Below are positions 8,550 to 25,465 of a stretch of DNA of 33,478 bases, piece after piece. Numbering within the stretch: the stretch's first letter is position 1; every line of letters starts with the position of its first letter. Under the pieces are notes generated by a model. The model saw only the letters and a list, made by a program, of their open reading frames with translations. It did no database searches and had not been told where the DNA came from. Made by a program: the position numbers and the translations under genes. Source of the stretch: Nanobdellota archaeon (lineage in GTDB: Archaea > Nanobdellota > Nanobdellia > Woesearchaeales > GW2011-AR15); contig JAHIYL010000157.1 in the NCBI GenBank assembly GCA_018815145.1, positions 1 through 33,478 of the forward strand. Direction: 5' to 3'.

Positions 8550-9503
8550 ATGAAGACAATACTTGTGACCGGTGCCGCAGGCTTCATCGGAAGCAGCACC
8601 TGCGAAAAACTGATTAAAAAAAAATACATAGTGGTTGGTGTCGACAACCTGAATGACTACTACTCTCCGAAGGTCAAACTCAGAAATGTAAACGAGATCA
8701 AGAAGGATCCAAAATTCAGACTCTACCAGACTGACATAAGAGACTTTAATGGGATAGAAAAAATTTTTGCTCAAAACAAGATCGACAAGGTGATCCATCT
8801 TGCTGCAAGGGCAGGGGTGCGTCCCTCGCTCGAGCAGCCGCGCCTATATTTTGATGTCAATGTCAATGGGACACTGATTCTGCTTGAACTGGCAAAGGAA
8901 TTCAAGGTGAAAAATTTTGTGTTTGCATCTTCATCAAGTGTCTATGGAGAGAACAAAAAAGTGCCATTTTCTGAAGAGGATTTGACAGAAGATCAGATAA
9001 GTCCATACGCATCTTCAAAAAAATCAGGCGAACTCATATGCAGGACATACAGCCATCTCTTCAATATGAATGTTTCCTGCCTGCGTTTTTTTACTGTCTA
9101 TGGTCCAAGAGGACGACCTGATATGGCTCCCTTCATATTCACTGACCTAATATCAAAGGGAAGAACAATCGATATGTATGGTGACGGCACCTCAAAACGT
9201 GATTATACCTATATAGATGATATCACTGATGGTATCATAGGCGCTCTTGAAAAGGATTTCCGGTTTGAGATTTTCAACCTTGGTAATTCTGATCCTATAC
9301 CTTTAAAAAATTTCATTTCCATCATTGAAAAAAATCTGGGGAAAAAAGCAAAAATAAAAAAAAAACCTATGCAGCAGGGAGATGTTCTGATCACATACGC
9401 TGACATTGCAAAGGCTAAAAAGATGCTCGGATATAATCCAAAGACTGACATTGAGCAAGGTATGAAAAAATTCATCGAGTGGTACAAGAAAAATAATTCA
9501 TAG
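8550..9503 (+). CDS. NAD-dependent nucleotide-sugar epimerase, most like UDP-glucuronate 4-epimerase (extended SDR)
   Basis: The Rossmann motif is TGAAGFIGS. DNLNDYYSPKVKLRN is typical of the CapI/GAE group. The catalytic region is SSSSVYG...YASSKKSGE (YxxxK). Confidence 0.8.
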   Translation: MKTILVTGAAGFIGSSTCEKLIKKKYIVVGVDNLNDYYSPKVKLRNVNEIKKDPKFRLYQTDIRDFNGIEKIFAQNKIDKVIHLAARAGVRPSLEQPRLYFDVNVNGTLILLELAKEFKVKNFVFASSSSVYGENKKVPFSEEDLTEDQISPYASSKKSGELICRTYSHLFNMNVSCLRFFTVYGPRGRPDMAPFIFTDLISKGRTIDMYGDGTSKRDYTYIDDITDGIIGALEKDFRFEIFNLGNSDPIPLKNFISIIEKNLGKKAKIKKKPMQQGDVLITYADIAKAKKMLGYNPKTDIEQGMKKFIEWYKKNNS

Positions 9504-9511
9504 AATTTTTC

Positions 9512-10081
9512 CTATAGGAGAGATCTCACAAAAGTTCCGAATATTGAAAATACAACAATATTGAAGCAGAAATTTGTGCCTGTATAGGCTATGTTCTCAG
9601 TTATTCCAAGATTCAATATTTTCATGGACATTCCAAATAGGATAATATTATTCATTATTGTTATTATTATTCCCAGAGTGAAAGTATTTGCATATGGAAA
9701 AAATGATGCGGCAACTGCAGCTAAACAATATGTAAAGATCATCAGGAAATGATCTGCTAGCATGCCTCCTGAATAAAATGATGCTATAAGTTTTGTGGAT
9801 ACTGCTACAAAAAGTCCCCACTTCAGCCCAAAAGCCTGCGTTATGACAATTGTAGAAAATGTCGAGAGCTCTAGATCAGTCGGCATGCCTCTTTTGAACT
9901 GAAAGTCAACAAGCTTGGCATTGAAGACAATCGCCAAAGCGACAAATATCAGAATCTTTGGATTGATATAAAACGACGCGATGAACAAGATGACAAGACC
10001 CATTATGACCTTTTTCAAAATATCAATGGAAAAGAAACTTTTTCCCCGTGCTTTTTTTTTGGTGCTTAATCTTTTTTTCAT
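9512..10081 (-). CDS. Polytopic membrane protein of unknown function (about 5 TM helices)
   Basis: The listed start at 10084 is TTG and the ATG at 10081 gives MKKRLSTKKKARGK, followed by hydrophobic segments. I recognise no family motif. Confidence 0.55.
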   Translation of the reverse strand: MKKRLSTKKKARGKSFFSIDILKKVIMGLVILFIASFYINPKILIFVALAIVFNAKLVDFQFKRGMPTDLELSTFSTIVITQAFGLKWGLFVAVSTKLIASFYSGGMLADHFLMIFTYCLAAVAASFFPYANTFTLGIIITIMNNIILFGMSMKILNLGITENIAYTGTNFCFNIVVFSIFGTFVRSLL

Positions 10082-10167
10082 CAAACCAAGATTATATTTT
10101 TCTTTTATATAAATATTTGTCTTGAAATCAGTTAAAAATATATATTTTGATCATCTCTTCATTATCC

Positions 10168-11676
10168 ATGAAAAAATTGCATCCCATGTTTTGGGTAACG
10201 ATCATATTCCTTATATCTGTATCAATCAGATTAATCCTGACAATGCAGAGCAATTATTTCAGCGATGATTCTTCCTATTTCACATTGAGACAAGTCGAGC
10301 ACATAAGCAATACAGGACGACCTCTCATAGATGATGAACTCTCTTACAGCGGAAGAAGGTTCATCTTCCTGCCATTCTACCATTACATCCTGGCATTCTT
10401 TTCGATTTTCCTTCCTTCGTGGCTTGTGGGAAAAATTATATCTAATATTCTGGCAGCATCGATAATTTTTTCTGTATATCTCATCTCCTATCAGGTCACA
10501 AAGAGTCGGAAAGCATCGCTTTTTGCGGCAGTGATTTCAGCCTTTACTCCAATATATCTGTCAAATACAATCAACAGCCTCAATGTAAATTCACTCGCAT
10601 TACCAACCACTTTCTTCTTCCTGTATCATTATCTCATGCTGACCAAAAAAACCAATTCAATCAATTTCATCCTTGCGTTTCTTTTTGTACTTATATTCAG
10701 CACTTCTCTTTCCTCTTTTCTGATAGTCGGATTGATACTTTATTCACTGTTGTGCTATGCAGAAAAAATCAAGATAGATAAAAAAGAGACAGAACTGATT
10801 TTATTTTCAGTATTCTTTTTTCTATGGACAAATTTTATCATATATAAGAATGCATTCCAATCTCAGGGAATCAGTATCATATGGCAGAACATTCCTCAAT
10901 TCCTATTTGAAAAATATTTTGTTCATATCTCTCTTTTTGAAGCAATATTGGGCATAGGCCTTGTCCCTCTTGTTCTTGGAACATGGACAATATTCAATTA
11001 TCTGTTTAAAAAAAAGAGCCAATCAACATACCTTTTGATATCATTATGCATCTCGGGATTCATCCTTTCCTGGTTCAGGCTGATAAATTTCACTGATGCC
11101 TTAATGTATCTCTCAATCCTACTGGCATTACTCTCTTCAATTATAATCAGAGACAGCCTTCTTCTGATTCGGAAAACCAAATTTGCAAAGCAGGAAAAAC
11201 TCTTCCTGATCATGCTGTTTTTTCTCATCCTTCTGACAGGCATTATCCCTTCAATCCAATTTTCATATGACACGATAAAAGATTCACCAACTGAAACAGA
11301 CGTTAATGCTTTCACCTGGCTGAAGAACAACACTAAAGAAGATTCAATAATTTTGGCAACTATTGAAGAAGGGCATTATATATCGTATTTTGGAGACAGA
11401 AAGAATGTGCTTGATTCAAATTTTCTTTTGATCTCAAACATAGACTTAAGGATAAATGACACTGAAGAGATCTATACTACCCCCTATAAAATCAATGCAC
11501 TTACATTGCTTGAAAAATATGACGTAGATTACATCATTTTTAGTCAGCATGCAGAAAAAGAATACAATATTACCGGTATTTCATACGCCATGGATGATTG
11601 TTTCAGCAAAGTGTATAGCAAAACTCTGGATATTTTCAAAGTCAAATGCTCCCTGGAAAAAAATGAAAGAAAATGA
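10168..11676 (+). CDS. GT-C fold membrane glycosyltransferase, STT3/AglB-like or ArnT/PMT-like (paralogue 1)
   Basis: The listed start at 10147 is TTG and the ATG is at 10168. The protein is multi-TM. The first loop reads YFSDDSSYFTLRQVEHISNTG (GT-C acidic loop-1 motif). The C-terminal soluble region WLKNNTKEDSIILATIEEGHYISYFGDRKNVLDSNF...LLEKYDVDYIIFS follows the layout around the STT3 WWDYG region, but the WWDYG motif itself is absent. Confidence 0.6.
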   Translation: MKKLHPMFWVTIIFLISVSIRLILTMQSNYFSDDSSYFTLRQVEHISNTGRPLIDDELSYSGRRFIFLPFYHYILAFFSIFLPSWLVGKIISNILAASIIFSVYLISYQVTKSRKASLFAAVISAFTPIYLSNTINSLNVNSLALPTTFFFLYHYLMLTKKTNSINFILAFLFVLIFSTSLSSFLIVGLILYSLLCYAEKIKIDKKETELILFSVFFFLWTNFIIYKNAFQSQGISIIWQNIPQFLFEKYFVHISLFEAILGIGLVPLVLGTWTIFNYLFKKKSQSTYLLISLCISGFILSWFRLINFTDALMYLSILLALLSSIIIRDSLLLIRKTKFAKQEKLFLIMLFFLILLTGIIPSIQFSYDTIKDSPTETDVNAFTWLKNNTKEDSIILATIEEGHYISYFGDRKNVLDSNFLLISNIDLRINDTEEIYTTPYKINALTLLEKYDVDYIIFSQHAEKEYNITGISYAMDDCFSKVYSKTLDIFKVKCSLEKNERK

Positions 11677-13054
11677 ACTGAAACTCCTGACATTGCTGAT
11701 AATAGTAAATGTCCTGCTCTTAATAAGTCCACACATACTCAGGTATAAAGAAAACCCGTATCTTATGGGGTCATCATCTTATTTTCACATATGGGTATCC
11801 AAAAATATTGAGGGAAATGTTTTTTCTCCAATAGAAGACACTCTTTTTTTTGGAGGAAGAGAAATTGAAGTTTCCATATCAGAAATCATCCTTTCATTTT
11901 TCACTAATAAGGAGATGGTCATGAAGATTCTTCCTTTTGTTTTAGGCATCCTTTCCACACTGATTTTTTACCTGATATTAAGAAGGCTGAAGGTTCCAAA
12001 AATAAAAAGCTTCTTTACATGCCTGATACTGATCCTATCTCCAATTTACATCAATACCTTTTCAATTTACAACAATTTTTTCATTGCTGTATTTTTAGTC
12101 CTCTTATCAAGCTTTTTTCTTTTGAAAGAAAATTATTTTTTTGCCTTTTTGATGTTCATTCTGATCGTATTTATCCATCTCAACAGCATTTTTATTATCC
12201 TTATAATGCTATTGATTTTCTATTATAAAACAAAAGAAAAAAATTCAATGCTGTATTTTATTTTGGCTGCCCTTTTTTTTGCTTTTGCAGTCATTGTTGG
12301 CACTCTTACAAAAGAGGTTGGTTTTTCACCTTTACTGCAGAATATCATATCTGATTTTGGTGCAGATATTGGTTTTGGTATATTTTCATTATTACTATCT
12401 TCAATTGGAATTCTATTGTCATGGAAAAGAAAAAAGGAAAATTTGCTGTTGTATCTGATGCTATTGACATTTGCAATATTGACCATATATTCTATAGAAT
12501 TCATTATTTATCTGGAATATTTCATGGTATATTTTGCGGGAATTGCATTTGTGAAATTGCTGGATTATAAATGGCAGCTTGTTGCAATAAAGCAATATGC
12601 CATCCTTCTGATATTATGCGGATTGTTCTTTTCCAGTGGATCCTATATTAACCGATTGGTTCATCTTCAACCTACTCCGGAGGAAGTCCTGAGCCTGGAA
12701 TGGCTCAGCAAAAATTCAGCTGAATATGAGGTTGTACTGACACAATACAAAAATGGAAATCTGATAGTATCATTGGCCGGCCGGCCTGTGATAAGTGATG
12801 AATATTATTTTATATCATCAAAAGAAAAGATCCGGATTGAGGACTCTAATAGAATTTTTTACTCAAGAATACTTAAGGATACAAAAGAACTTTTGGACAA
12901 ATACAGCATAAGATACATCTGGATTAATCCACAAATGAAAAAAGAGATATGGAAAAAAGATGAAGAAGGTCTTCTTTTTCTCTTAGACAACAGCAATTCA
13001 TTCAAGAAGATTTATGATTTCAAAGGAATTGAAATCTGGAAATACACTGAATAA
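11663..13054 (+). CDS. GT-C fold membrane glycosyltransferase-like protein (paralogue 2, more degenerate)
   Basis: The probable start is the ATG at 11663 (MKENELKLLTLLII...), overlapping the upstream stop by 14 nt. The listed 11549 start would lie 128 nt inside the upstream gene. It is collinear with paralogue 1: GSSSYFHIWVSKNIEGN vs DDSSYFTLRQVEHISNTG, WLSKNSAEYEVVLTQYKNGNLIVSLAGRPVISDEY vs WLKNNTKEDSIILATIEEGHYISYFGDRKNVLDSNF, and LLDKYSIRYIWIN vs LLEKYDVDYIIFS. Confidence 0.55.
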   Translation: MKENELKLLTLLIIVNVLLLISPHILRYKENPYLMGSSSYFHIWVSKNIEGNVFSPIEDTLFFGGREIEVSISEIILSFFTNKEMVMKILPFVLGILSTLIFYLILRRLKVPKIKSFFTCLILILSPIYINTFSIYNNFFIAVFLVLLSSFFLLKENYFFAFLMFILIVFIHLNSIFIILIMLLIFYYKTKEKNSMLYFILAALFFAFAVIVGTLTKEVGFSPLLQNIISDFGADIGFGIFSLLLSSIGILLSWKRKKENLLLYLMLLTFAILTIYSIEFIIYLEYFMVYFAGIAFVKLLDYKWQLVAIKQYAILLILCGLFFSSGSYINRLVHLQPTPEEVLSLEWLSKNSAEYEVVLTQYKNGNLIVSLAGRPVISDEYYFISSKEKIRIEDSNRIFYSRILKDTKELLDKYSIRYIWINPQMKKEIWKKDEEGLLFLLDNSNSFKKIYDFKGIEIWKYTE

Positions 13055-13059
13055 TATCT

Positions 13060-14187
13060 TTATTTCCCAATTTTCTTATTAAACTCATGAATGATATCCT
13101 CAACAATCCTGGAAGTAGAATCATGTTTTGAAAATAAACTCATGTTTGCTCTAAAGAAGTATCTTAATTTTTTTTCATTGATAAGATTTGATATTCTTTT
13201 CAGTATCTTACTGTGTGAATTCTCATAGTATCCCAACTTATGCTTAAGTATGAAGTTTACATTCGCATCCTCTTGCCCGCCAAGTGATTTAAATGCAAAG
13301 ATAGGAAGTCTTTTGGAAAAACATTCTGAAACTGCTACACCTCCTGGTTTTCCCAAAAATATATCTGATGCATCCATAAGCTGCGCGACCTCTTCAGTAT
13401 AATCCAATATATGCACAGGGTTTCTTGATTTTTTGATCTTTTTCCTTAAATAATTACCAAGCTTCCTGTTTGTACCGCAGAGGACAATCAATTGTATAGG
13501 AAGATCTGCATCTGATAATTTTATCACCAGTTTTTCAGTGAATTTTTGTGCAAAACCCAGTCCTCCTCTCATCATAATGATATTGAATTTTGAAGGATGC
13601 ATACAAAACCTTTCTAAAGTTTTATCTCTGTCGAAATGGGTATTGAATTCTTTTCTCAAAGGAAGACCATAGCTTTTTGCTGTTGCTCTTTTGAGGGTTT
13701 TTTTTATTTCATTATTAAAGGATTCATGCGGAGTATAGAATATATCTGTTCCTGCAATCAGGTCAAATGGTCTGTTTATGTAGTCTGTCAATATCTGTAC
13801 ATTCAACAAAAAAGGATTTTTTTTTCTGAGTGCATTTCCAACTATGGCTCCGGCGGGAAAGGTAGAGACGACAACATCTACTTTTTGATTTCCAAGCGGG
13901 CCTATGATTTTTTTCTGGTACTTTTTGGAATTTTTTATTACATATCTATTGAAGGATTCTGAAAATAAAAGATGTTTGCTGATGGGGTCATAGATCAATT
14001 TAAAATAATGAGCCATAAAAACCCACCACCTTGTCAGGAGCCACCTATGGAATGGATGAAGATAATCATTGATATCAATGCTGTGAATCTCAATAGCTGA
14101 ATCTTTTTTCAGGAATCCTTTTCTGAGAGAGTCAGCAACCTGGGTATGGCCTGAGCCTGAAGAACATGATATTATTGCAACTCTCAT
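13060..14187 (-). CDS. GT28-type glycolipid glycosyltransferase (MGDG synthase/UgtP-like)
   Basis: The N-terminus is MRVAIISCSSGSGHTQVADSL. The C-terminal region is GKPGGVAVSECFSKRLPIFAF..LGGQEDANVNFI. Both are characteristic of the MGDG_synth/Glyco_tran_28_C architecture. Confidence 0.75.
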   Translation of the reverse strand: MRVAIISCSSGSGHTQVADSLRKGFLKKDSAIEIHSIDINDYLHPFHRWLLTRWWVFMAHYFKLIYDPISKHLLFSESFNRYVIKNSKKYQKKIIGPLGNQKVDVVVSTFPAGAIVGNALRKKNPFLLNVQILTDYINRPFDLIAGTDIFYTPHESFNNEIKKTLKRATAKSYGLPLRKEFNTHFDRDKTLERFCMHPSKFNIIMMRGGLGFAQKFTEKLVIKLSDADLPIQLIVLCGTNRKLGNYLRKKIKKSRNPVHILDYTEEVAQLMDASDIFLGKPGGVAVSECFSKRLPIFAFKSLGGQEDANVNFILKHKLGYYENSHSKILKRISNLINEKKLRYFFRANMSLFSKHDSTSRIVEDIIHEFNKKIGK

Positions 14188-14202
14188 TTGATTTGTAATG
14201 GC

Positions 14203-14679
14203 TCAATTGGACCTGTAGGAACTGACTCCTTCTAAAAATAAAAATATTGACCAGATTATAAGAGATGGCACAAACACCGGGAACCATGAAAAAAGAATCA
14301 GTGGTGTCAAAGCATAAAAGAGTATCTTCAACAAATCATAATATTTAATTTTTCTGAACATTGGGTTCAGGATAATACTCAAAAAGAAAACAATGAATGT
14401 GCCTGCGAACAGATAAAAAAAGAACATTGCAAAACCTATTCCAAAACCATAATTAAGTACATTCAGATAATTAATCTCAACATTACTGAAGATGTCAAAG
14501 TATATTGATTTAATGAATCCAAATACAACATTCACTCCAAAAGCCAGACCAGCACAAATCAGGAGAAGTATCATATAGTCTCCTAAAATATCCTCAAAAC
14601 TTTTGCTTTTCATATCTTTGAATGAGCTTTTTGGATCTGACAATACCATGATTGCTCTTTTTATCCTTTTTTTTATCAT
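14203..14679 (-). CDS. Yip1-domain-like small polytopic membrane protein
   Basis: 158 aa. The N-terminal cytosolic stretch VLSDPKSSFKDMK is followed by 4-5 TM helices. The family assignment rests on topology and N-terminal similarity only. Confidence 0.45.
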   Translation of the reverse strand: MIKKRIKRAIMVLSDPKSSFKDMKSKSFEDILGDYMILLLICAGLAFGVNVVFGFIKSIYFDIFSNVEINYLNVLNYGFGIGFAMFFFYLFAGTFIVFFLSIILNPMFRKIKYYDLLKILFYALTPLILFSWFPVFVPSLIIWSIFLFLEGVSSYRSN

Positions 14680-14756: not shown

Positions 14757-16007
14757 CTAAATCTGCTTTTCCCATTTATTTTCCTTATGCGGAACAAGAA
14801 ATTCAAATAGGCTGACTATATATATGATCATTACAAAAAACCAGAACGGAAACATGAAAAATAAGGCGATTGCATGATAAAAATCAAATTTTTTATCAAA
14901 TTTAAATATTGAATAAAAATACAATGGATATGACAAAAGTGTTGAAATAAGTCCTATCATTGTCAAAAGATCCAGCGGTGTCGTACCAATAACTATTGTG
15001 TATATCCACCTTACTACACCCATGATCGAGAACCAGTTGAAAAAGAACTTGACTACTTCAAAACTAAAAATTACACCATTGTTTACAAAGTAAGTGAAAT
15101 ACCCGCCAAATATCTGTATTGAAATAAATGCACCCAGGATTATTGCCTGCAGATAAGAAAAAACAGCCAGTGGAAGAGAGTAAAGCTCAAGTATGGACAT
15201 CCTGACTCTAAGATGACGCTTAAGAATATTTATCCATCCCCTGGCAAACCTTATCCTCTGAAATATAACTCCTTTAAGTGTCTGGGGCATGTTTGTAAGT
15301 GACACACTGTTTTCCGAGTATTCTATCCTCTGTCCATTCCTGATTATTCTGACCGCAATATCAACATCTTCAGAAAATCCCTTAGATTCAAATCCACCTA
15401 TGTCCTCAAGAGTCTTTTTTCTGTAGAACGAAAGCGGTCCTGGTGTGACAATATTTGCATTAATCCTGCATAAAAGAGATCTAAGGAGTGAATTATATAG
15501 CTGTTCAATATGAAGCCATATCCCAAAAAAAGTCTTTCTGTTGTTGAGCTTGATTGTTGTGGTGACGGCACCGACATCAGGATAATTGAAATATCTAAGT
15601 GCATTGATAAGAGAATTCTTTTCAATCACACTGTCTGCATCAACCACTGCTATTATGTCTCCTTTTGCTTTTTTCAGGGCAAAGTTCAGTGCCCTAGCCT
15701 TACCAAAATGCTGAGTCTTGAATAATCTTACTGGAAACCCCTCTGCTATCCTATTTGTTGAGTCGCTGCTCCCATCATCTATGACAATTATTTCCTTTTT
15801 TCCTGGAAAATTTGACCTTATGATTGATCTGAGAGTCTCTGCCAGATACTTTTCTTCATTATGAGCCGGCACAAGGATTGAGATTAATGACGGCAATTTT
15901 CCTTTTTTTGGCACTCTTTTCCTGATGAAAAAAAGTACATAATATGAAAGGATTATCAATAGAAACAATACTTTGACTATGTTTGCCAGCTCTTCCAAAA
16001 GAACCAT
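14757..16007 (-). CDS. Integral-membrane GT2 glycosyltransferase, processive-synthase-like (PgaC/NodC/HAS-like)
   Basis: Motifs are ILVPAHNEE, IIVIDDGSSD, AVVDADS, FSEDVDIAVR (TED-like) and FQRIRFARGW (QRxRW with W->F). There is an N-terminal TM helix and a C-terminal TM bundle. Confidence 0.8.
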   Translation of the reverse strand: MVLLEELANIVKVLFLLIILSYYVLFFIRKRVPKKGKLPSLISILVPAHNEEKYLAETLRSIIRSNFPGKKEIIVIDDGSSDSTNRIAEGFPVRLFKTQHFGKARALNFALKKAKGDIIAVVDADSVIEKNSLINALRYFNYPDVGAVTTTIKLNNRKTFFGIWLHIEQLYNSLLRSLLCRINANIVTPGPLSFYRKKTLEDIGGFESKGFSEDVDIAVRIIRNGQRIEYSENSVSLTNMPQTLKGVIFQRIRFARGWINILKRHLRVRMSILELYSLPLAVFSYLQAIILGAFISIQIFGGYFTYFVNNGVIFSFEVVKFFFNWFSIMGVVRWIYTIVIGTTPLDLLTMIGLISTLLSYPLYFYSIFKFDKKFDFYHAIALFFMFPFWFFVMIIYIVSLFEFLVPHKENKWEKQI

Positions 16008-16017
16008 TTTTCAAATT

Positions 16018-17253: not shown

Positions 17254-17270
17254 TTTATTTCAAAATTTTC

Positions 17271-18008
17271 CTATATACCTAAGATCACTTCTTTATTTCT
17301 TATTGCCCTTCTCAGACGAGCATAACTTGGAACACCAACAATCTTTGTATTGTCCTTCCCGTCAATGCCAATATATATTGCCGGAAGACTTGTGCCGACA
17401 GCAAGTTTTTCTGAGTCTATCATATCTTTTTGGACAATAATATAGTCTGAAGAATCCATGCATTTATTAAATTTGCTTTTTGCAATGCCAAATCTTTCCG
17501 CAACATTATCTATCTTGTCTGTTTCCAATCCCACTATTGCGTCAATGATGTCAGAGAGGTTTCCTTTGCCGATGCTTTCTTCAATGCACAAGATTGCTGT
17601 CGCATAGACATAGCCATTTTCTTTGCTGTTGTAATCATCATCAGATATGTATGTCTTGTAATAGAGCCTGACTCTTCCTGAATCAATGAATTCATCTCTT
17701 AGCTGCGGAACAATATCTTTTTCAAAATCTTTGCCTGCATCTGAGATAAAATCAGTGAAAATAATGACTGTCACTCTTGCGTCCGGACTGCCAATAAAAT
17801 CTCTTCCCATTATATCAGGATTGGTGGTAAAATAATACTCAAAGAGATAGGATTCATTCTTCTGGTCAACATTTTTTTTTATATATGGCTTTTTTGTAAG
17901 CTCATACATCAATGCGCTGACACAAATAAATAGCACAAACAAAACAAATAAAGTAAAAACAATGATTGTCTTTAGACCTCTATTCTGTATCTTGGCCTTT
18001 TTTTTCAT
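17271..18008 (-). CDS. Membrane-anchored DsbA-like (Thioredoxin_4) protein lacking the CxxC active site
   Basis: It has an N-terminal TM anchor. The DsbA-like layout is GSPDARVTVIIFTDFISDAGKDFEKDIVPQLRDEFIDSGRVRLYYKTY...CIEE...FNKCMDS...GTSLPAIYIG. The position normally holding C-P-x-C reads S-D-A-G. Confidence 0.6.
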   Translation of the reverse strand: MKKKAKIQNRGLKTIIVFTLFVLFVLFICVSALMYELTKKPYIKKNVDQKNESYLFEYYFTTNPDIMGRDFIGSPDARVTVIIFTDFISDAGKDFEKDIVPQLRDEFIDSGRVRLYYKTYISDDDYNSKENGYVYATAILCIEESIGKGNLSDIIDAIVGLETDKIDNVAERFGIAKSKFNKCMDSSDYIIVQKDMIDSEKLAVGTSLPAIYIGIDGKDNTKIVGVPSYARLRRAIRNKEVILGI

Positions 18009-18700
18009 TCGACAGTCTCCATAAGCTCATTTTTGGATACTAACTCTTTTTGGAGAACATTTTCCTGGATAATTACAGCAGGAATATCAGTTATGTCATA
18101 GTAGCTCTTGATAAGCTTTACAATCTGTTCATCTGAATTGAAATCTATGGTAAAAACAATTACCTTTTTTCCTTTTGTTTCCATCTCCTGCTTGAATCCG
18201 TCAAGCTCTTCTCCCTGCTTAATACATGTAGCGCACTCCTTTGAATAAAAATAGAGGACTGGTATCAGGGTCTTATTGCACTTTTTGTAATTATTTTTTG
18301 CCATGACCCAAGCTCTTATCGAAAGTTTTGTATAAGATTCCTTCAGAGCAAGGTATTCTTCACTCACCTTATTGTACCGCTCATATTCTTCAATCCTGTA
18401 TGGGAAGCTCTCCCAGAAATAGCTCAGCCTATCTTCAAGATCATTGTAAGACAATGCTGAGAATTCACATGCTTTTTTTGGTGAAAGACCGCTTGTGAAG
18501 CTTTCCTGCACCTGGATTGTCTCGATTCCTGCTGTCAGGACATCCACATAGTTTTTTATGAAATCTATCTCTTCCTGAGTCTTCTTCTCTATCATTTTAT
18601 TTGCATAAAGACCACTAAGGACTCCGGCCAAATAAAGCAGAATTGACAATATGACTGATATGATAATCAATTTCTTTCGGGATTTGATGATTTTCTTCAT
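18005..18700 (-). CDS. Membrane-anchored thioredoxin-fold protein with a CxxC (CATC) motif
   Basis: It has an N-terminal TM anchor and a helical linker. The Trx core is IPVLYFYSKECATCIKQGEELD...KVIVFTIDFNSD...YDITDIPAVII. It overlaps the downstream DsbA-like gene in an ATGA arrangement. Confidence 0.7.
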   Translation of the reverse strand: MKKIIKSRKKLIIISVILSILLYLAGVLSGLYANKMIEKKTQEEIDFIKNYVDVLTAGIETIQVQESFTSGLSPKKACEFSALSYNDLEDRLSYFWESFPYRIEEYERYNKVSEEYLALKESYTKLSIRAWVMAKNNYKKCNKTLIPVLYFYSKECATCIKQGEELDGFKQEMETKGKKVIVFTIDFNSDEQIVKLIKSYYDITDIPAVIIQENVLQKELVSKNELMETVE

Positions 18701-18723
18701 ATCTCTACGGAAACGCCCGTATT

Positions 18724-18733
18724 CTATATAAAG
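18724..18733 (-). promoter_or_regulatory. TATA-like box candidate for the thioredoxin/GT operon
   Basis: The minus strand reads ctttatatag, about 25-30 nt upstream of the ATG at 18700, which would give a leaderless or short-leader transcript. Confidence 0.3.
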
Positions 18734-18786
18734 TTTTTGTCAAAAACATATATCCCAAAACTTGTGTAAAAAGAGCAAGAGGAAAA

Positions 18787-18796
18787 CTTTAAATAA
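18787..18796 (+). promoter_or_regulatory. TATA-like box candidate for the giant surface-protein gene
   Basis: ctttaaataa lies about 25 nt upstream of the GGGGG Shine-Dalgarno-like tract (18822-18826). Confidence 0.3.
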
Positions 18797-18832
18797 TCAT
18801 GTATATTAAGAGATTAAAAAAGGGGGCAAAAC

Positions 18833-21800
18833 TTGACAAAAAAACTAATTTATATGCTACTAATCATTATTCTCTCTATTGTTACAGCCAGTTTTGCATA
18901 TGCTTCCTTTGATGTTAATCTGCATTCACCTGAAAATGGCATCTATAAGAGCACAAATTCTGTTATGTTCAATTTCTCTGTCATAGGCAATTACTCAAGC
19001 TATAACTGCAGCATATTTACAAACAGGACCGGAGCGTGGATGATCAATCTCACCAATTCTTCTGTATCTAACGACACTTTCAGCTTCTTCGATCTGCAGG
19101 AACTTGATGAAGGTGAATTCTTATGGAACATATTCTGTGAAAATCAGACAGAATCCAATTTCAGCATATCTAACTATTCCCTGAATATTGATACAATCTT
19201 TCCTTCATGGACAGACTATTCTACCTATCCGGCAGACAACCAGAATTACACTCCTGACACAAGTCATGAATTCAACATAACATGGAGCGATATCAATCTG
19301 AGGTATGTCTGGATAGAACATAATTTCACAGGGACTCTTTTAAATTACACATCAGTATCAAATATTTCTGAATCTATTTTTTACTATCAGTATGGTTCTC
19401 TCAAGGCAGGTTCATATCTCTGGCGCATGTTCGCAAACGACACTGCAGGTAATCTTAATTTTTCAGACAGTTTTACCTATTTCATACAAAAAACTGAGTC
19501 ACTCATCAATCTGACAATCAACGAGACAACAACAAATTTTTCTATTAGTGAAGGTAATTATCTCAATATAACAGGGACAAAGCTCTCTGGCGAAGGTGAT
19601 ATCACTCTATACAATAATGGCACAGCAGTCAATTCAGATCCTTCACTAGTATCCAATATATCCTTCTTCTACATCCCAGGCACATTCAATATCACATTAT
19701 TCTACACTGAATCAGAGAATTACACTGAATCATATTATACTTTTTGGGTGACTGTTAATGATACAGCTGCACCATCCTGGTATGATAATCTCACAAGTAT
19801 AGCAAGTGGATTTGCCTATTCTCAACTGCTGCGCCAATTCAATGTATCCTGGAATGATTCAACATTAGACACTGTATGGATTGAACACAATTTCAGTGGC
19901 ACGCTGTCCAATTATTCTGTGACAGGCAATATCAATAACATCATATATTATTATGATTCGCCTACAATCACTCCCGGAGAATATTCTTGGAGCATGTGCG
20001 CAAATGATTCACAGCAGAATCTCAACTGCACACCATATTTCAGCTACTCAGTTATCAAGGCAAATCCCAGCATCAACCTGACCATAAATGGAAATGGAAA
20101 CCTGTCAACCTATGTTGTTGAGAGTGTCAATCTTACAGGTTTTGTCCTTGATGGAGACGACATACTTGAACTGTATGTCGAAGGCATATTGTACAATAAT
20201 GGCTCTGATGCTGTCACAAATATCACTTCCTTTATTACAGAAGGCATAAAAAATATAACTCTGATATACCCTGTTTCTCAAAATTATACAGGGACATCAG
20301 AAACATTATGGGTAGATGTTATTGGGACTTTTTTTACTTCACTTCCGGATATCTTGCCTGCAGCAATAAATAACCAGACAAATATGGTATGCAGTTTTGA
20401 AGAGGATGGAGCTTCAAACAATATCACAACGTGGTATAGGAACAATGTAAGTGACCTAAGAATATATATGCCTTTTGAGACAAATGAAGGAAGTGAGTCA
20501 AACCAGACAATAGACTATTCAGGTTTCGGCAATAATGGTGTTGTTGTCAATGCAACATGGTCTGCATCTTCCGGAAAGATCGGCGGCGGATACACTTTCA
20601 ATGGAACTGATGATTACATAACTGTTGCGCACAGTGATTCATTGAACCTCACTAAACAGTTGACTGTGGAAGCTTGGGTAAAAAGAGAGGGTATAGGAAC
20701 TGAACAGGTGATACTGTCAAAGATGAGTAGTGTTTTCGGAACAGATATGTTCTCACTCTCATTTTATTCTAACAATAAGGTTAGGTTGACAATAGGGGCA
20801 GGTAGTTCTTGCGAAATTGATTCAATTTCAGCAATAACTGACTCCAATTGGTACCATATTGCAGCAACATATGATGGAGATACAAAACTTGCCAAAATAT
20901 ATATCAATGGAACTCTTGATAAGAATGATACATCATGTCTAATATCAAGTTTCATATGGACCTCAGATCCACTGGGAATTGGCGCACTTCATGACGGGAG
21001 CAATAAATTCAACGGCAGTTTGGATGAAATGAGATTGTATAACAAAACACTTTCTGATGCACAGATAAAAGAACATTCATTATTGAACTATCATCATCTG
21101 AATGCAAATGAGACTAACAGCAATGAATACTGGAAGTGCAGTGTTCTCCTTGTAAATGATACAAAGTTAGGTAGACATTATAATTCAACAGCCAAATACA
21201 TCAAAGAATACGATGCAGTCAACCTCACTGTCAATGGAACAGACGGAAATATCGGAATTGAAAGAGATTCAAGCATCAATATCACCGGAGTGCTCATATC
21301 AGGAGAAGGAGAACTTGCAATCTATATTGATGGTAATCTGATAAACAATGGAAGCCTACATATTTCAAACATCACATTGTTCAATGAGACAGGAAGCCAT
21401 AATATCACACTCATAAGTTCAGGCTCTGACACATATCTGCCGGCAAGCGAGACACATTGGGTGACTGTCACAGATACAGTGAATCCTGTGATCTCATCAG
21501 TTGCCAATATCTCTGTCACCTGGTCAACATACAATATCATCTGGAATACAGATGAACCTGCAAATTCCATTGTCTTCTATGGTAATTCATCCGGCAATTA
21601 CACATCCAGTGCATCAAATCTAACAGAATACACATTGTCACACAACATCACCATATCTAATCTTGAAGATAACAGGACATATTATTATATTGTCAATTCA
21701 ACAGATCCATCCGGAAACTCAAACCAATCTGAGGAATATAATATCACAATAGAATATCAGGATGAAGTGGCACCAATATCTGGAAATGAGTTAGTATATC

Positions 21801-24800
21801 CGGAAACTGGAAATATATATAACACTTCTATTGAATATTTTTTCAATGCCAGTTTCACAGATGATGTAAATGTGACTAGAGTATGGATAGAGCACAATTT
21901 TACTAAAGGCGCTATGCAGAATTCATCTGTATCTAACCAAGGAAATGAATATTATTACAATACTACTCAGCTTGCAGCAGGTCACTATGGCTGGAGGATG
22001 TATGCTAATGACTCATCCGGCAACATTGGTTCCACAGATTCATTCACATATGTTGTTGAACAGGCAACTCCAAGCATCAATCTGACATTGAACAGGACTG
22101 CCGGAAATAATTCCCTGTCTGAAAATTCAGTTGTCAACCTTACAGCAATATTATTAGCCGGTGAGACAAATATAATTCTTTATAACAACAACAGCATCAT
22201 TGCATCCGGTTCGACTATTGTGTCCGCAAACACTGAATATGATAAACCTGGACTATATAATATCTCTGCTGCATATCCTGCAACAGAGAATTACAGTGCG
22301 AGCATGACAACTTATTGGCTTACTGTAACTGATGTGCCTGAAGCACCGACAATCCTTAATCTGACAGATGATGTCACAAAGACTTTCATCAAAAAGGATG
22401 AAACCATCACATTCTCAGCATACTGGCTTGATGATGATACAGGAGATTCAGTGAAACTTCTCATATCAAGGAATCCTTATTTTGAAGGCTGTGATTATGA
22501 TAACACAAGTTCATGCGTAACTTATTCTACTGCGGACACAACCAGCCCGGCCACTGCAACACTAGTAAATACCCTTAATGAGAATCTGACATGGTATGGA
22601 CAGATATGTGACAGCTACAATAATTGCACAAAAGTACATACTTACAATGACAATGATGATTCTGAAGTGAACATCAATTATACTGCAGGATGGGTTAATG
22701 TCAATTATGCATTTGATGGAAATTTGGGCGCCCCGCAGGCTTACACAACTTCAACCAGTTTCACAGAAATTCTTTTCAACTATAGTGTTCCAAATAATAT
22801 CACTCAAGGCTGGATGAATTACAAAATCGAGATTATAACTGCTCTTTCCAACGGAACTCTTTTTTGTAATAATGGAACAGAATGGATTAATCTGAAAAGT
22901 TGGCAGGATACATCTTTAACAGAAGAAAGCAATACCACAATAGATCCTACTTGTTATGATGGAAAATCTTATATTGATTTCAATCTGAGTGCAAAAGTAA
23001 CTGGACTAGGTTATTTTAGAGTATATGAACTGCAGCCTGTCTGGAACAAGACCGAAGTATACACTGAAAGTTTTATTGCTGATTCAACTCTTCCTGCAAC
23101 TATAATATTTGGTCCAACAGATAATGAAACAATCAACCTATCCGCAGTTGATTTCAATTACAGTGTCAATGATTCATTTATTGACCGTGCCTGGTATCAA
23201 TTGGATTACAGTACCACAAAAAACTTCCTGGATCCTGCATTGAACACAACAAGCATAAGTTTTGATCATCCTGGACAGCATATAATAATCCTGTATGCAA
23301 ATGACTCAGCAGGAAATATCAACAGCACATCAACAACATTCTATTCAAATGCTGCAATCAATCTCACAAAATGGAAAGAAGACATGCAAAATTCAAATCC
23401 TGAAATATCCAATATACTTATATCAAACTCAACTGGTCAGGCTGATGAACTTGCGGATCCAGACCAGGATTTCACAATCCTGCTTCAACTGACTGATGTC
23501 AATGCAACTATTGTCAACTTCTCCGGGAGCATCGCAAGATGGAACTATGTATTCAATATCACTGATGCAAGTTCAGATTTTGAAAGCCAGGTTGACAGCT
23601 CAATTGCCACCCTGCCTGTTGATTTTGCTTATCTGCAGAATTTCTCATGGTTTTATAGCTCAGAAAATACTTATCACGGTATAGTGAGGCTTCCAAAAAA
23701 CATATCCCAATATGACAGCATCTATTATTGCCCAGACCATGATCTGAGCAACTGCTACATTGTCACTTCAGTTTGCACAGGCCTATCAGACAGTGATTCA
23801 ACACCCTGTTATAATAATTCAATAGATTATATTGATGTTTTTGTTCCGCATTTCAGTGGAGTGTTTGGTGACAATGATACTGTGGCACCCACCATATCAA
23901 TATCTTCGCCTGTTGCTTCAGAAGTCCTCAGCAATGGATATGATAACTATCTTACCCTCACTGTAAATGAGAATTCATTTTGCTACTACAAATTCAGCAC
24001 AGATCCATCATATACAATCTTTTCAGCAAGTGCAGGAACATCATTCCAAAAGCGATTCAATAGTGAGAATGATGCCTGGGTGGATGCATCTCACACTTTC
24101 AACATACTTTGCAATGACACATATGGGAACAGCAACACAGACAGTGTCTCATTCACTGTCAATGATACAACAGCACCAACCATAACTTCTTCATCGTTCT
24201 ATGAAGAAAGTGCCAGTGCGGAAATTGATATTACCACAAATGAACCCACACAATGCAGATATAATCAGTCCAATGTAGCATTCTCACTCATGACCGCATA
24301 TGTACAGAATGCATCCTATATTTTTGTGCACAGCGATACTGTCGATACAGAAGGTATGCACTATATCAAATGCCAGGACATGGGAGGCAATGAAGTGGCT
24401 ACATCAATGGATATAGATTTCACCTCCACAACAAACCTTCGCAACGATGATGATGAGGGAAATACCGGCGGAGCAGGAGGAGACAGTGAAACCGCCGGTC
24501 CTTCAAGCATAACCCGGCTATGGCAGTCAATGCCGACAGGAACCCAGACCATGACCATATCAAGCGAAGAATTAATAATAACCAAATTGACTTTCTCTGT
24601 CCTTGAAGACATAACAAAGACAGTCTCAATAACAGTCAGTCAGGTAATAAGCCTCTCTTCAAGCATGCCTGAACTTGACAATCTCCTGTACAAGTATGCA
24701 AGAATAACAACTGGCAATCTTCCTGACAGCATAATTGAAAATGTAAAAATCCGGTTCAAAGTAAAGGACAGCTGGATAAAGGAAAACAATATTGACATAT

Positions 24801-25465
24801 CATCAATAAAACTGAACAGGTACACCGGAAAATGGGATCTTCTTCCTACTTCTTTGACTGATACTGATTCAAAATATTTCTACTTTGAAGCAACATCACC
24901 TGGTTTTTCATATTTTGGGGTAAATGCCAAAGCAAAACCAACTTCACCTGCTTCAACACCTGCTGCACAGAATGACACAAATCCAGTTCCTGTAATGGAC
25001 TCTGGTCCGCAGATAACCGGAAGCACAGTCACAAATCAGACAAGCATAGATAAAAAAGACCTTATTGAAAAAATAATTGAAAATCCTCTTAATTATCTTT
25101 GGCCTGTGTTTACACTATTGATTATATTCATATTAGTCATCTTCCTTATTTACCAGAATAGGTTTTCTGTAGTCACAGATTCAGATCTTGTTGGATTGAG
25201 AAAATATGTCCAGACCTGTGAAAGTGAAGGTATTGAATTTGAAAAGATAAAAGATACCCTTGTTAATGCAGGATGGAAAGAATCATTGGTGGAACTCGTA
25301 CTCCATGACGTGCATATGCCACATGATGAAATTGAAAAACTTGAATTTTACATAAGCTATGCCACAAATAAAGGAATCAAGCCTGAAGAAATCAAAGAAA
25401 ATCTTTTAGGAGTAGGGTGGCAGCATGATATTGTAGATGAACTCATAAAAAAAATCAAACCATGA
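18833..25465 (+). CDS. Giant (2210 aa) type-I membrane surface protein: signal peptide, repeated Ig-like modules, LamG lectin-like domain, FN3-like domain, PGF-pre-PGF domain, TM helix and repeat-containing cytoplasmic tail
   Basis: A TTG start with GGGGG 6 nt upstream gives MTKKLIYMLLIIILSIVTASFAYA. Three WIEHNF[TS] modules have their Trp codons at 19310, 19877 and 21884. Four INLTxN...WVTV modules are present. The Laminin_G_3-like domain spans 20513-21070 (NGVVVNATW..GGGYTFNGTDDYITV..LTVEAWVK..NWYHIAATYDG..IYINGTL..FNGSLDEMRLYNKTLS). The PGF-pre-PGF domain spans 24497-24931 (..VKIRFKVKDSWIKENNIDISSIKLNRYTGKWDLLPTS...YFYFEATSPGFSYFGV). A Pro/Thr/Ser linker follows, then a TM helix at about 25094-25153. 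Confidence 0.9.
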   Translation: MTKKLIYMLLIIILSIVTASFAYASFDVNLHSPENGIYKSTNSVMFNFSVIGNYSSYNCSIFTNRTGAWMINLTNSSVSNDTFSFFDLQELDEGEFLWNIFCENQTESNFSISNYSLNIDTIFPSWTDYSTYPADNQNYTPDTSHEFNITWSDINLRYVWIEHNFTGTLLNYTSVSNISESIFYYQYGSLKAGSYLWRMFANDTAGNLNFSDSFTYFIQKTESLINLTINETTTNFSISEGNYLNITGTKLSGEGDITLYNNGTAVNSDPSLVSNISFFYIPGTFNITLFYTESENYTESYYTFWVTVNDTAAPSWYDNLTSIASGFAYSQLLRQFNVSWNDSTLDTVWIEHNFSGTLSNYSVTGNINNIIYYYDSPTITPGEYSWSMCANDSQQNLNCTPYFSYSVIKANPSINLTINGNGNLSTYVVESVNLTGFVLDGDDILELYVEGILYNNGSDAVTNITSFITEGIKNITLIYPVSQNYTGTSETLWVDVIGTFFTSLPDILPAAINNQTNMVCSFEEDGASNNITTWYRNNVSDLRIYMPFETNEGSESNQTIDYSGFGNNGVVVNATWSASSGKIGGGYTFNGTDDYITVAHSDSLNLTKQLTVEAWVKREGIGTEQVILSKMSSVFGTDMFSLSFYSNNKVRLTIGAGSSCEIDSISAITDSNWYHIAATYDGDTKLAKIYINGTLDKNDTSCLISSFIWTSDPLGIGALHDGSNKFNGSLDEMRLYNKTLSDAQIKEHSLLNYHHLNANETNSNEYWKCSVLLVNDTKLGRHYNSTAKYIKEYDAVNLTVNGTDGNIGIERDSSINITGVLISGEGELAIYIDGNLINNGSLHISNITLFNETGSHNITLISSGSDTYLPASETHWVTVTDTVNPVISSVANISVTWSTYNIIWNTDEPANSIVFYGNSSGNYTSSASNLTEYTLSHNITISNLEDNRTYYYIVNSTDPSGNSNQSEEYNITIEYQDEVAPISGNELVYPETGNIYNTSIEYFFNASFTDDVNVTRVWIEHNFTKGAMQNSSVSNQGNEYYYNTTQLAAGHYGWRMYANDSSGNIGSTDSFTYVVEQATPSINLTLNRTAGNNSLSENSVVNLTAILLAGETNIILYNNNSIIASGSTIVSANTEYDKPGLYNISAAYPATENYSASMTTYWLTVTDVPEAPTILNLTDDVTKTFIKKDETITFSAYWLDDDTGDSVKLLISRNPYFEGCDYDNTSSCVTYSTADTTSPATATLVNTLNENLTWYGQICDSYNNCTKVHTYNDNDDSEVNINYTAGWVNVNYAFDGNLGAPQAYTTSTSFTEILFNYSVPNNITQGWMNYKIEIITALSNGTLFCNNGTEWINLKSWQDTSLTEESNTTIDPTCYDGKSYIDFNLSAKVTGLGYFRVYELQPVWNKTEVYTESFIADSTLPATIIFGPTDNETINLSAVDFNYSVNDSFIDRAWYQLDYSTTKNFLDPALNTTSISFDHPGQHIIILYANDSAGNINSTSTTFYSNAAINLTKWKEDMQNSNPEISNILISNSTGQADELADPDQDFTILLQLTDVNATIVNFSGSIARWNYVFNITDASSDFESQVDSSIATLPVDFAYLQNFSWFYSSENTYHGIVRLPKNISQYDSIYYCPDHDLSNCYIVTSVCTGLSDSDSTPCYNNSIDYIDVFVPHFSGVFGDNDTVAPTISISSPVASEVLSNGYDNYLTLTVNENSFCYYKFSTDPSYTIFSASAGTSFQKRFNSENDAWVDASHTFNILCNDTYGNSNTDSVSFTVNDTTAPTITSSSFYEESASAEIDITTNEPTQCRYNQSNVAFSLMTAYVQNASYIFVHSDTVDTEGMHYIKCQDMGGNEVATSMDIDFTSTTNLRNDDDEGNTGGAGGDSETAGPSSITRLWQSMPTGTQTMTISSEELIITKLTFSVLEDITKTVSITVSQVISLSSSMPELDNLLYKYARITTGNLPDSIIENVKIRFKVKDSWIKENNIDISSIKLNRYTGKWDLLPTSLTDTDSKYFYFEATSPGFSYFGVNAKAKPTSPASTPAAQNDTNPVPVMDSGPQITGSTVTNQTSIDKKDLIEKIIENPLNYLWPVFTLLIIFILVIFLIYQNRFSVVTDSDLVGLRKYVQTCESEGIEFEKIKDTLVNAGWKESLVELVLHDVHMPHDEIEKLEFYISYATNKGIKPEEIKENLLGVGWQHDIVDELIKKIKP
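25196..25312 (+). repeat. Cytoplasmic-tail repeat 1 (39 aa) of the giant protein
   Basis: LRKYVQTCESEGIEFEKIKDTLVNAGWKESLVELVLHDV aligns without gaps to repeat 2, with 11/39 identical residues (L..Y.......GI..E.IK..L...GW....V). Confidence 0.7.
25340..25456 (+). repeat. Cytoplasmic-tail repeat 2 (39 aa) of the giant protein
   Basis: The sequence is LEFYISYATNKGIKPEEIKENLLGVGWQHDIVDELIKKI. See repeat 1 for the alignment. Confidence 0.7.

Follow-up and report, generated by a model that had tools for sequence, protein, structure and literature searches.

Two conserved gene modules in a probable lineage-variable glycosylation locus of a Woesearchaeota-type archaeon

When a gene for a giant, sequon-rich surface protein lies next to a series of glycan-related genes, are these genes its dedicated tailoring machinery, or do they belong together for another reason? 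This question is raised by a 17-kb block (positions 8550–25465) in a contig from a metagenome-assembled genome (MAG) labeled "Nanoarchaeota archaeon" (JAHIYL010000157.1; locus tag KKF44_06010). We analyzed the complete 33.5-kb contig (33,478 nt; hereafter the window), part of which is also contained in the assembly of run SRR2544004. The source archaeon is a tiny, probably host-dependent DPANN member of the Woesearchaeota type. The original prediction for this block, made from the sequence, was that everything from the epimerase gene to that of the giant protein constitutes a single integrated unit for the construction, glycosylation, and redox maturation of this envelope protein, which would be the cell-contact apparatus of the organism. 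The comparison with related loci leads us to favor, with moderate confidence, a different picture: a cell-surface glycosylation locus similar to archaeal agl clusters, variable among lineages and composed of independently conserved modules that sit beside the genes for aMBF1 and Trm14.

The genes were identified by open reading frame (ORF) calling and by Pfam and NCBIfam scans of the window. The features of the block and its borders are as follows (GT, glycosyltransferase; TM, transmembrane segment; coordinates are those of the window).

7002–8511, minus strand: IS701-family insertion sequence (IS) at the left border of the block, with the transposase ORF at 7009–8211 (NCBIfam transpos_IS701, 1e-38)
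8550–9503, plus strand: NAD-dependent epimerase/dehydratase of the short-chain dehydrogenase/reductase type, GalE-like (PF01370, 3e-59; GalE model, 8e-61, under the equivalog cut-off)
9512–10084, minus strand: orf190, a multi-TM membrane protein, missing from the gene list of the original prediction
10168–11676 (start at 10147 or 10168), plus strand: GTC1, a multi-TM GT-C of ~500 aa with the STT3/AglB fold, no Pfam match
11663–13054, plus strand: GTC2, a multi-TM paralog of GTC1, no Pfam match
13060–14187, minus strand: GT28, a GT-B resembling monogalactosyldiacylglycerol and other glycolipid synthases (PF06925, 1e-12; diglucosyl-diacylglycerol synthase, 9e-39, below cut-off)
14203–14679, minus strand: Yip1-family membrane protein with 4–5 TM (PF04893, 2.5e-6; 27.9 bits against a cut-off of 28.6, which its orthologs pass)
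14757–16007, minus strand: GT2a, a membrane GT2 similar to PgaC and PcManGT (PF00535, 1e-30; PgaC_IcaA, 7e-39; motifs DxD, SED, and QRxRF)
16018–17253, minus strand: GT2b, a minimal BcsA-like membrane GT2 of 411 aa with a TM-GT-TM layout and a C-terminal WYCTPK (CelA, 4e-47)
17271–18008, minus strand: Trx4, an N-terminally anchored, predicted extracytoplasmic DsbA/BdbD-like protein (PF13462, Thioredoxin_4, 4e-10)
18005–18700, minus strand: TrxTM, the signature gene of module M1 (see below), with an N-terminal TM, a variable-length helical stalk, a helical bundle, and a CxxC-bearing thioredoxin domain
18701–18832, no strand: divergent intergenic region of 132 nt with two TATA-like boxes, read directly
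18833–25465, plus strand: giant type-I surface protein of 2210 aa, with a signal/TM segment (aa 5–23), LamG, FN3-like, and PGF-pre-PGF domains, and a TM at aa 2088–2106
25470–27081, minus strand: aMBF1 (TIGR00270, 6e-38; gene at 25470–25943) and Trm14 (3e-36), which form the syntenic frame and are outside the glycosylation machinery

Most of the genes named in the original prediction were recovered as described, namely, the UDP-sugar epimerase, the two tandem GT-C paralogs (with an STT3-like fold by profile and structure comparison), the glycolipid-synthase-like GT28, and the Yip1-like protein. Its gap sizes were also exact, both for the co-directional minus-strand run from 18700 to 13060 (−4, 17, 10, 77, and 15 nt) and for the 132-nt divergent gap. 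Two of its descriptions need amendment. There are two membrane GT2s, and GT2b carries the expected QxxRW motif in the form of QQMRW, but GT2a reads QRxRF at this position. Similarly, both members of the thioredoxin/DsbA-like pair have a thioredoxin fold and TrxTM has a CxxC, but Trx4 has SDAG instead.

The evidence for a modular locus comes from comparisons of gene neighborhoods with TrxTM (18005–18700; 23 close homologs) as the marker. The loci compared were the contigs of TrxTM homologs, nine loci from GTDB genomes, and nine loci from JGI metagenomes, which were searched by tblastn with all window proteins. Five genes in the order of Yip1-TrxTM-Trx4-GT2b-GT2a (hereafter M1) are contiguous in all 16 lineages examined. 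The order is constant except in the window, where Yip1 has moved behind GT2a, and in L017 and L033, where the genes are rearranged. Compared with the window proteins, the levels of identity are 50–61% for GT2b (the most conserved gene of the block), 43–52% for GT2a, 35–48% for TrxTM, 34–44% for Yip1 (found in every M1 locus, normally as gene one), and 22–32% for Trx4. GT28 has no homolog detectable by tblastn in any of the related loci and adjoins M1 only in the window; the corresponding slot of L015 and L016 is occupied by another GT-B (PF13528). Judged by these comparisons, the minus-strand run is a conserved gene cluster with five of its six genes kept as a block, and GT28 is a lineage-specific accessory gene. 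The operon-like run proposed in the original prediction holds to the same extent, with short gaps and five genes conserved together across 16 lineages but with GT28 not conserved.

Among M1 loci from named genomes, all belong to Woesearchaeota or Nanoarchaeota except one (L009, CAYVGP010000035.1), which has M1 and a GTC1/GTC2 pair typical of Woesearchaeota, yet derives from a MAG labeled "uncultured Methanosarcinales archaeon." This label probably reflects a binning error, or possibly co-assembly of a host and its symbiont. A profile search with TrxTM found 971 clusters (50% clustering, E ≤ 1e-3), and all of the named ones belong to two DPANN groups, Woesearchaeota or Aenigmarchaeota. More distant members also have related neighbors: a TrxTM relative in L022 (hhalign, 98.4%) and a TrxTM-family gene in the Aenigmatarchaeota genome L036 are both located beside GT2a/GT2b-like genes, and the contig of another distant relative (L026) is too short to inform on context. 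A 493-aa protein in L036 was considered as a member of the GTC1 family and rejected (no relationship by hhalign; no Pfam match).

The second module (hereafter M2) is the GTC1-GTC2 pair. GTC1 has 61 homologs, and GTC2 is immediately downstream of GTC1 in all seven lineages with the pair (the window, L009, L018, L020, L022, L023, and L031/32). From the sequences found so far, M1 and M2 appear to be two uncharacterized modules confined to DPANN archaea. The two do not always travel together. The closest relative of the window, L018, shares its frame and has the gene order STT3 (954 aa)-EamA-EamA-epimerase (65% identity)-orf190 (57%)-GTC1 (53%)-GTC2 (51%)-GT2-DUF4190-GT2-epimerase2-1195-aa giant ortholog-aMBF1 (58%)-Trm14, but TrxTM, Trx4, Yip1, and GT28 are missing from it, and the identity of its GT2 pair to GT2a/b is only 29–32%. 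L020 has the order GTC1-GTC2-GT2-88-aa ORF-GT2-epimerase (60%)-STT3 (956 aa)-SecY. Epimerase orthologs were seen only in these two loci, both beside STT3/AglB (in L004, there is a weak epimerase-family match with 30% identity that is ~5 kb away), and the only orf190 ortholog is that of L018, which likewise has the epimerase and GTC1 as its neighbors. In Pfam (tried up to E ≤ 1) and NCBIfam, orf190 has no match. M1, M2, and epimerase-orf190 are conserved separately, and the block is therefore a mosaic of modules rather than a system built around the giant protein.

The chromosomal context is more constant than the content. The window has housekeeping genes at both flanks, namely, a Lon-like gene and topA on the left and aMBF1, Trm14, a RecJ-like gene, and gyrA on the right. 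In most of the Woesearchaeota lineages examined (the window, L004-7, L013, L014, L018, L023, and L033), the aMBF1 gene directly adjoins the glycosylation cluster, on one side or the other, and a gene for a RadA/KaiC-like ATPase is often found at the opposite end. With aMBF1 at one end and often the ATPase at the other, the glycosylation genes therefore share a chromosomal location that is conserved while its content varies. As judged from these gene orders, M1, M2, and epimerase-orf190 recombine at this slot with each other, with canonical AglB, and with other GTs.

What, then, do the modules make? The genes that flank M1 bear on this question. Among the 15 informative lineages, nine have a GT-C gene adjoining M1, with co-directional, convergent, and upstream cases, and the other six have no GT-C beside M1. 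The flanking GT-C is of the PMT_2/GT22 type in L004-7, L012, L014, and L033 and is a GTC1-like gene in L017. The window, L009, and L031/32 have GTC1-GTC2 in this position, which in L032 directly precedes M1 in the same orientation. In L002/3, L011, and L013, M1 is flanked by a small GT2 of 242 aa. This recurrence in several arrangements leads us to argue for a functional link between M1 and GT-C enzymes.

The enzymes of M1 could also be read otherwise, as a self-contained exopolysaccharide synthase operon for a cellulose-, poly-N-acetylglucosamine (PNAG)-, or chitin-like polymer, with the thioredoxin-fold and Yip1 proteins as outer partners comparable to BcsB or PgaD and the GT-C neighbors as coincidence. 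The strict co-conservation of the five genes and the six lineages that have no adjacent GT-C agree with such an operon, as do the enzymes themselves. The GT2b family profile matches BcsA at 4.6e-45, with the alignment running through FFCG, TED, and QxxRW, and the complete BcsA/CesA-type catalytic set (DD, DxD, FFCGT, TED, and QQMRW) is present. The corresponding residues (D87-D88, D141xD143, F206-F207-C208-G209, T231-E232-D233, and Q268-Q269-x-R271-W272) show no or almost no variation among 11–14 orthologs. By NCBIfam, GT2a is similar to PgaC and NodC.

Several other observations speak against this alternative, which we regard as unlikely. The association with GT-C genes in nine of the 15 lineages and in varied arrangements, including the co-directional GTC1-GTC2-M1 order of L032, is hard to obtain by chance. 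In L018 and L020, the neighbors of the GT2b/GT2a-like pairs include AglB, the epimerase, and the STT3-like pair (the pairing of a BcsA-like with a PcManGT/PgaC-like GT2 is also found in L036). The best match of GT2a among solved structures is PcManGT (6yv7, 6e-18), which a 2020 paper in the Journal of Molecular Biology reportedly describes as an archaeal mannosyltransferase that depends on dolichyl phosphate, has a minimal cellulose-synthase-like fold, and is tied to N-glycan synthesis. Furthermore, domain scans of the window and the related loci found no BcsB, PilZ, PgaB, PgaD, or deacetylase.

The GT-C pair belongs to the STT3 fold class. Neither GTC1 nor GTC2 matches any family in Pfam (including PF02516, STT3) or NCBIfam at E ≤ 0.01–0.1. 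The profile of the GTC1 family matches STT3/AglB/PglB alone among the PDB entries (best, 3.6e-8), with the alignment extending across the TM core and the C-terminal region. The AlphaFold2 (AF2) model of GTC1 (pLDDT 91) has the multi-TM core and the C-terminal extracytoplasmic globular domain of a GT-C fold, and its best 17 Foldseek matches are all STT3/AglB/PglB (E from 1e-13 to 1e-9; TMq 0.62–0.74), followed by DPY19, AftA, and ArnT. The two paralogs are 26% identical in their last 125 aa. Within EL1, the first external loop, the Asp of the motif FSDDxSYFxLRQVEH is present in all six GTC1 orthologs and in none of the six GTC2 orthologs; by its position in the sequence, it is a candidate for the catalytic Asp. 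GTC1 is the likely catalytic member of the pair, and GTC2 is probably a non-catalytic, degenerate partner.

The WWDxG motif of oligosaccharyltransferases binds the +2 Ser/Thr of the sequon. At this position (WWDYG), GTC1 has TIEEG (profile consensus ieeGh, i.e., xxEGH) and GTC2 has QYKNG (xYxNG); because WWDxG is absent from both, the acceptor would not be an N-X-S/T sequon. The motif is a defining feature of AglB (PMC11407970). GTC1 and GTC2 are therefore members of the STT3 fold class and not AglB. A canonical AglB, or a disrupted copy of one, could be ruled out for the pair and for the window, in which neither Pfam nor tblastn with the STT3 proteins of L018 and L020 detected STT3/AglB or a remnant of it. 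Both of these relatives have a canonical STT3 (954 and 956 aa, respectively, both matching PF02516) adjoining M2 and the epimerase ortholog.

Clusters of the M2 type also contain a recurring ORF of 85–88 aa. It is located between the two GT2 genes in L018 (14418–14675; weak match to DUF4190) and L020 (14110–14376) and between GTC1 and GTC2 in L022 (11547–11810). These ORFs, which were grouped by size and position alone, may encode a small membrane subunit.

The two thioredoxin-fold proteins of M1 differ in their likely chemistry. In the TrxTM alignment, C78, C141, C156xxC159, and the cis-Pro P207 are invariant (CxxC and P207 in 17/17), and the TM segment LYxAGVLSGLYANK is strikingly conserved. 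The AF2 model (pLDDT 82) finds thioredoxins by Foldseek (E 4e-5), so that thioredoxin fold, CxxC, and cis-Pro are all present. Trx4 matches BdbD (3eu3) at 5e-6, with the CPSC of BdbD aligned to its SDAG. None of 10 Trx4 orthologs has a CxxC, and C141 and C183 are the only invariant cysteines. An active DsbA can be ruled out on this basis, and only one member of the pair can therefore be redox-active. From their sequences, both thioredoxin-fold domains should face outwards.

With the modules described, we return to the giant protein and to the proposal that the whole block, from the epimerase onward, is its dedicated machinery for construction, glycosylation, and redox maturation. The ectodomain has a PGF-pre-PGF domain at aa 1908–2030 (TIGR04213, 2e-23), at least four copies of an Ig-like module of ~190–300 aa, and 22 cysteines. 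The claimed saturation with sequons is evident: there are 118 N-X-S/T sequons, all in the ectodomain, compared with 48 ± 6 in shuffled sequences (47.5–48.7 ± 5.7; z = 12) and with 0–7 in each of the other window proteins. These features, the contiguity of the genes across the 132-nt divergent promoter region, and the likeness of a CxxC thioredoxin beside STT3-fold GT-Cs to Ost3/Ost6 of the eukaryotic oligosaccharyltransferase (OST) all fit a dedicated unit. So do the positional orthologs in L018 (1195 aa, 41–50% identity, 76 sequons, z = 11) and L013, both of which abut glycosylation genes.

The same comparison makes a dedicated unit improbable. Each of these two orthologs is beside a different set of glycosylation genes. 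The L013 ortholog, in the arrangement gyrA-Trm14-aMBF1-335-aa protein-M1, has 335 aa and three sequons and consists only of an anchor (signal peptide, PGF-pre-PGF, TM, and the same tail). M1 has no large surface protein beside it in 14 of the 16 lineages, nor does M2 in five of seven. In five further lineages, aMBF1 abuts the glycosylation cluster with no surface protein in between. GT28 is unique to the window, the window has no AglB, and GTC1 and GTC2 are without WWDxG. More distant PGF-pre-PGF proteins (L024 and L025) have no glycosylation neighbors, and sequon enrichment was found in 19 of the 20 family members (z = 3.7–14), whatever their genomic context. The sequon load is therefore a property of the protein class. 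These distant relatives were retrieved with the last 811 aa of the giant protein as the query, a search that returned distant relatives only (23–44% identity over the aligned parts) and missed the window and L018 proteins; the search was therefore used just for the sequon statistics and the two context look-ups.

The original prediction had asked whether the Trx/GT2 module and the GT-C pair co-occur next to PGF-pre-PGF giants in relatives; a consistent association was not observed, which weakens the prediction by a criterion of its own. Of the one functional unit, what stands is that the block consists of glycan and envelope genes, that it contains a conserved cluster often accompanied by a GT-C, and that giant orthologs lie beside glycosylation genes; what falls is the tie of M1 to the giant protein and the inclusion of GT28. 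As part of the overall picture that we favor, and with the same moderate confidence, the adjacency of the giant gene to these genes reflects the shared synteny of one sub-lineage rather than an obligate partnership.

Behind its last TM, the giant protein has a cytoplasmic tail of ~100 aa (window 25151–25462, aa 2107–2210) with two LxxxGWxxxxVxxL (GW) repeats and no Pfam family match. The tail is conserved in the 335-aa protein of L013 (5277–5600), and the L018 ortholog aligns through this region as well. PGF-pre-PGF anchor proteins may use it for docking in the cytoplasm. A PGF-CTERM/archaeosortase substrate can be ruled out, since ~100 residues follow the TM. In the divergent region upstream of the giant gene, a TATA-like box TTTATATA is found on the minus strand at ~18725–18732, upstream of TrxTM, and a second one, TTTAAATA, at 18789–18796, is followed by GGGGG ~8 nt before the TTG start at 18833. 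Both boxes were recognized by the archaeal TATA consensus.

That the block is a horizontally acquired or mobile island integrated at this site is very improbable: an intact IS701 abuts its left end and the gene content of the slot differs among relatives, but GC (0.31–0.41 across the window), GC content at third codon positions (GC3), and tetranucleotide profiles match those of the flanks, no tRNA, integrase, flanking direct repeats, Rfam features, or tandem repeats were found in the window, synteny with other Woesearchaeota extends over both flanks and includes several genes within the block, and TrxTM has no relatives on IMG/VR viral contigs. With flat composition and neither tRNA nor integrase, nothing in the sequence therefore marks the block as "integrated," as the original prediction had it, and a compositional or mobile island can be rejected. 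The region at 21001–24000, in the middle of the giant gene, has a tetranucleotide correlation with the whole window of r = 0.81, compared with 0.93–0.98 elsewhere. This low value probably results from N/S/T-rich repetitive coding sequence and not from foreign origin.

The IS701, immediately left of the epimerase, is the single mobile element in the window. Its terminal inverted repeats of 26 nt (7002–7027 and 8486–8511) are 88% complementary. At the same place, L018 has STT3(AglB)-EamA-EamA, and an IS-associated rearrangement may have split AglB from the cluster in the lineage of the window.

A few genes outside the modules were also recorded. Beside the IS, a 133-aa ORF (6559–6960, plus strand) encodes a Cys-rich secreted protein of small size, which has 11 cysteines, a lipoprotein-like signal (…LMMNGC), and no family match. 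Further left (1794–3548, minus strand) is a gene for a 584-aa protein whose sole recognizable part is a Lon_C proteolytic domain at aa 106–202, with no AAA+ module. In L012 (408–3328), four tandem genes of ~200 aa each are located upstream of M1, and their AEMGIGTLIIFIAMILVAA N-termini resemble class III signal peptides of archaellins and type IV pilins. L014 has an acetyl-CoA synthetase gene (16195–19533) that is split by an intein with a LAGLIDADG homing-endonuclease domain.

For the glycosylation locus that we favor, a possible sequence of steps can be outlined, although we have much less confidence in the individual biochemical steps than in the overall picture. The epimerase would supply a UDP-sugar substrate. 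GT2a and GT2b, with their catalytic domains in the cytoplasm, would make a β-linked glycan, which could be a free chain or attached to a polyprenol/dolichol carrier, and pass it to the outer face of the membrane. M1 would act as a membrane complex or pathway, in which the partners of the two enzymes are Yip1, the stalked CxxC thioredoxin, and the redox-dead DsbA-like protein. The STT3-fold pair of M2, or a PMT_2-type GT-C in other lineages, would then transfer the lipid-linked sugar or glycan to an extracytoplasmic, non-sequon acceptor. Outside the membrane, TrxTM as the redox-active member and Trx4 as a binding module could act on cysteine-containing partners or substrates, and GT28 could add a glycolipid step particular to the lineage of the window. 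The giant protein would most likely be N-glycosylated by a canonical AglB encoded elsewhere and might also be a recipient of the products of the locus.

Some points weigh against the modular glycosylation locus. The sample consists of only ~20 related DPANN loci, many on short contigs. All three positional orthologs of the giant gene (3/3) lie beside glycosylation genes at ~59% gyrA identity, and selection may have maintained this adjacency. The window lacks an identifiable flippase, AglB, and polyprenol-phosphate GT. The outward orientation predicted for TrxTM and Trx4 comes from the positive-inside rule alone. In addition, bacterial synthase-dependent systems usually lack a GT-C partner, and a processive synthase such as GT2b fits poorly with one; M1 may therefore make short lipid-linked glycans.

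A more specific version goes further. In this version, M1 and M2 would together form a DPANN-specific, non-canonical glycosylation machine for the cell surface, in which GTC1, with GTC2 as a pseudo-enzyme, places the lipid-linked glycan made by the GT2s on a non-sequon acceptor of surface proteins or lipids, and TrxTM and Trx4 hold Cys substrates open in the manner of Ost3/Ost6. We consider this machine a tentative idea that is doubtful at present.

Comparisons with known systems help to place the locus. Archaeal agl clusters, such as those of Haloferax volcanii and the Pyrobaculum PcManGT cluster, resemble the window in that a sugar-nucleotide enzyme, membrane GT2s, and a GT-C are clustered and in their variable, strain-specific content. 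The likeness extends to the relatives L018 and L020, in which an epimerase of the same type, a GT-C pair, and a GT2 pair lie beside canonical STT3/AglB. Unlike agl clusters, the window has no AglB, recognized flippase, or initiating phosphosugar transferase, and we know of no report of thioredoxin-fold and Yip1 genes in such clusters. Archaeal N-glycosylation clusters differ even among close strains (PMC11407970). A full-text literature search found no published description of an M1-type module.

At the level of the enzymes, GTC1 shares the fold of STT3/AglB/PglB, to which the DPY19 C-mannosyltransferases are structurally related, has profile homology to STT3/AglB/PglB in the TM core and the C-terminal domain, and has in EL1 a candidate counterpart of their acidic motif. 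However, it has ~500 aa rather than the 700–1000 aa of STT3/AglB/PglB, the WWDxG is replaced, there is no Pfam STT3 match, and it is always in tandem with GTC2, in which the EL1 Asp is missing. In relatives, it occurs alongside a canonical STT3. GT2b has the TM-GT-TM layout and the catalytic motifs in common with BcsA, PgaC, NodC, and HAS. Its C-terminal WYCTPK, in which W401 and K406 are invariant (14/14) together with T404 (11/11), resembles the gating loop motif FxVTxK, although it lies outside the HMMER alignment, and ~4–5 hydrophobic segments were detected in GT2b, compared with about 6–8 helices in a complete TM channel. Unlike the BcsA-type enzymes, it is a minimal core with no PilZ, BcsB, PgaB, or PgaD and is always accompanied by a second, different GT2 and thioredoxin-fold proteins.

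TrxTM invites a functional analogy with Ost3/Ost6 (TUSC3/MagT1) and with glycocin clusters (e.g., the GT2 and Bdb proteins of sublancin), in which CxxC thioredoxin-fold proteins likewise occur with glycosyltransferases. The analogy does not extend to homology in architecture with either system: Ost3/6 have a luminal thioredoxin domain and four TMs, whereas TrxTM combines its thioredoxin domain with a stalk and an N-terminal TM. The most constant partner of TrxTM is the GT2 pair rather than a GT-C. A glycocin-type cluster was ruled out, since the GT2s are polytopic and of the synthase type and the precursor peptide and ABC-C39 transporter of such clusters are missing. As for the giant protein, the surface proteins of Nanobdella aerobiophila and Nanoarchaeum equitans and other PGF-pre-PGF proteins similarly have a signal peptide, Ig-like modules, dense N-X-S/T sequons, and one C-terminal TM. 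Sequon-rich, Ig-fold surface proteins with a C-terminal TM anchor are known in cultivated DPANN archaea (bioRxiv 10.1101/2023.10.27.564410). The protein of the window differs from its relatives in length (2210 aa compared with 600–1400 aa), in the conserved tail with its two GW repeats, and in having no PGF-CTERM/archaeosortase signal.

DPANN archaea rely on cell–cell contact, and the construction of their surfaces is little understood. For the locus studied here, the unified picture of a giant protein with its own tailoring island gives way to that of a variable glycosylation slot with two conserved modules. M1 would tie thiol chemistry to glycan synthesis outside the eukaryotic OST and the glycocin systems, and M2 would represent the reuse of the OST fold for a different, proposed acceptor in archaea that have a canonical AglB as well. 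If the Ost3/Ost6-like reading is true, these modules would be an independently evolved archaeal form of oxidoreductase-assisted glycosylation, and the STT3 fold class would gain a new acceptor specificity. M1 and M2 may also account for strain-specific surface glycans that govern host recognition.

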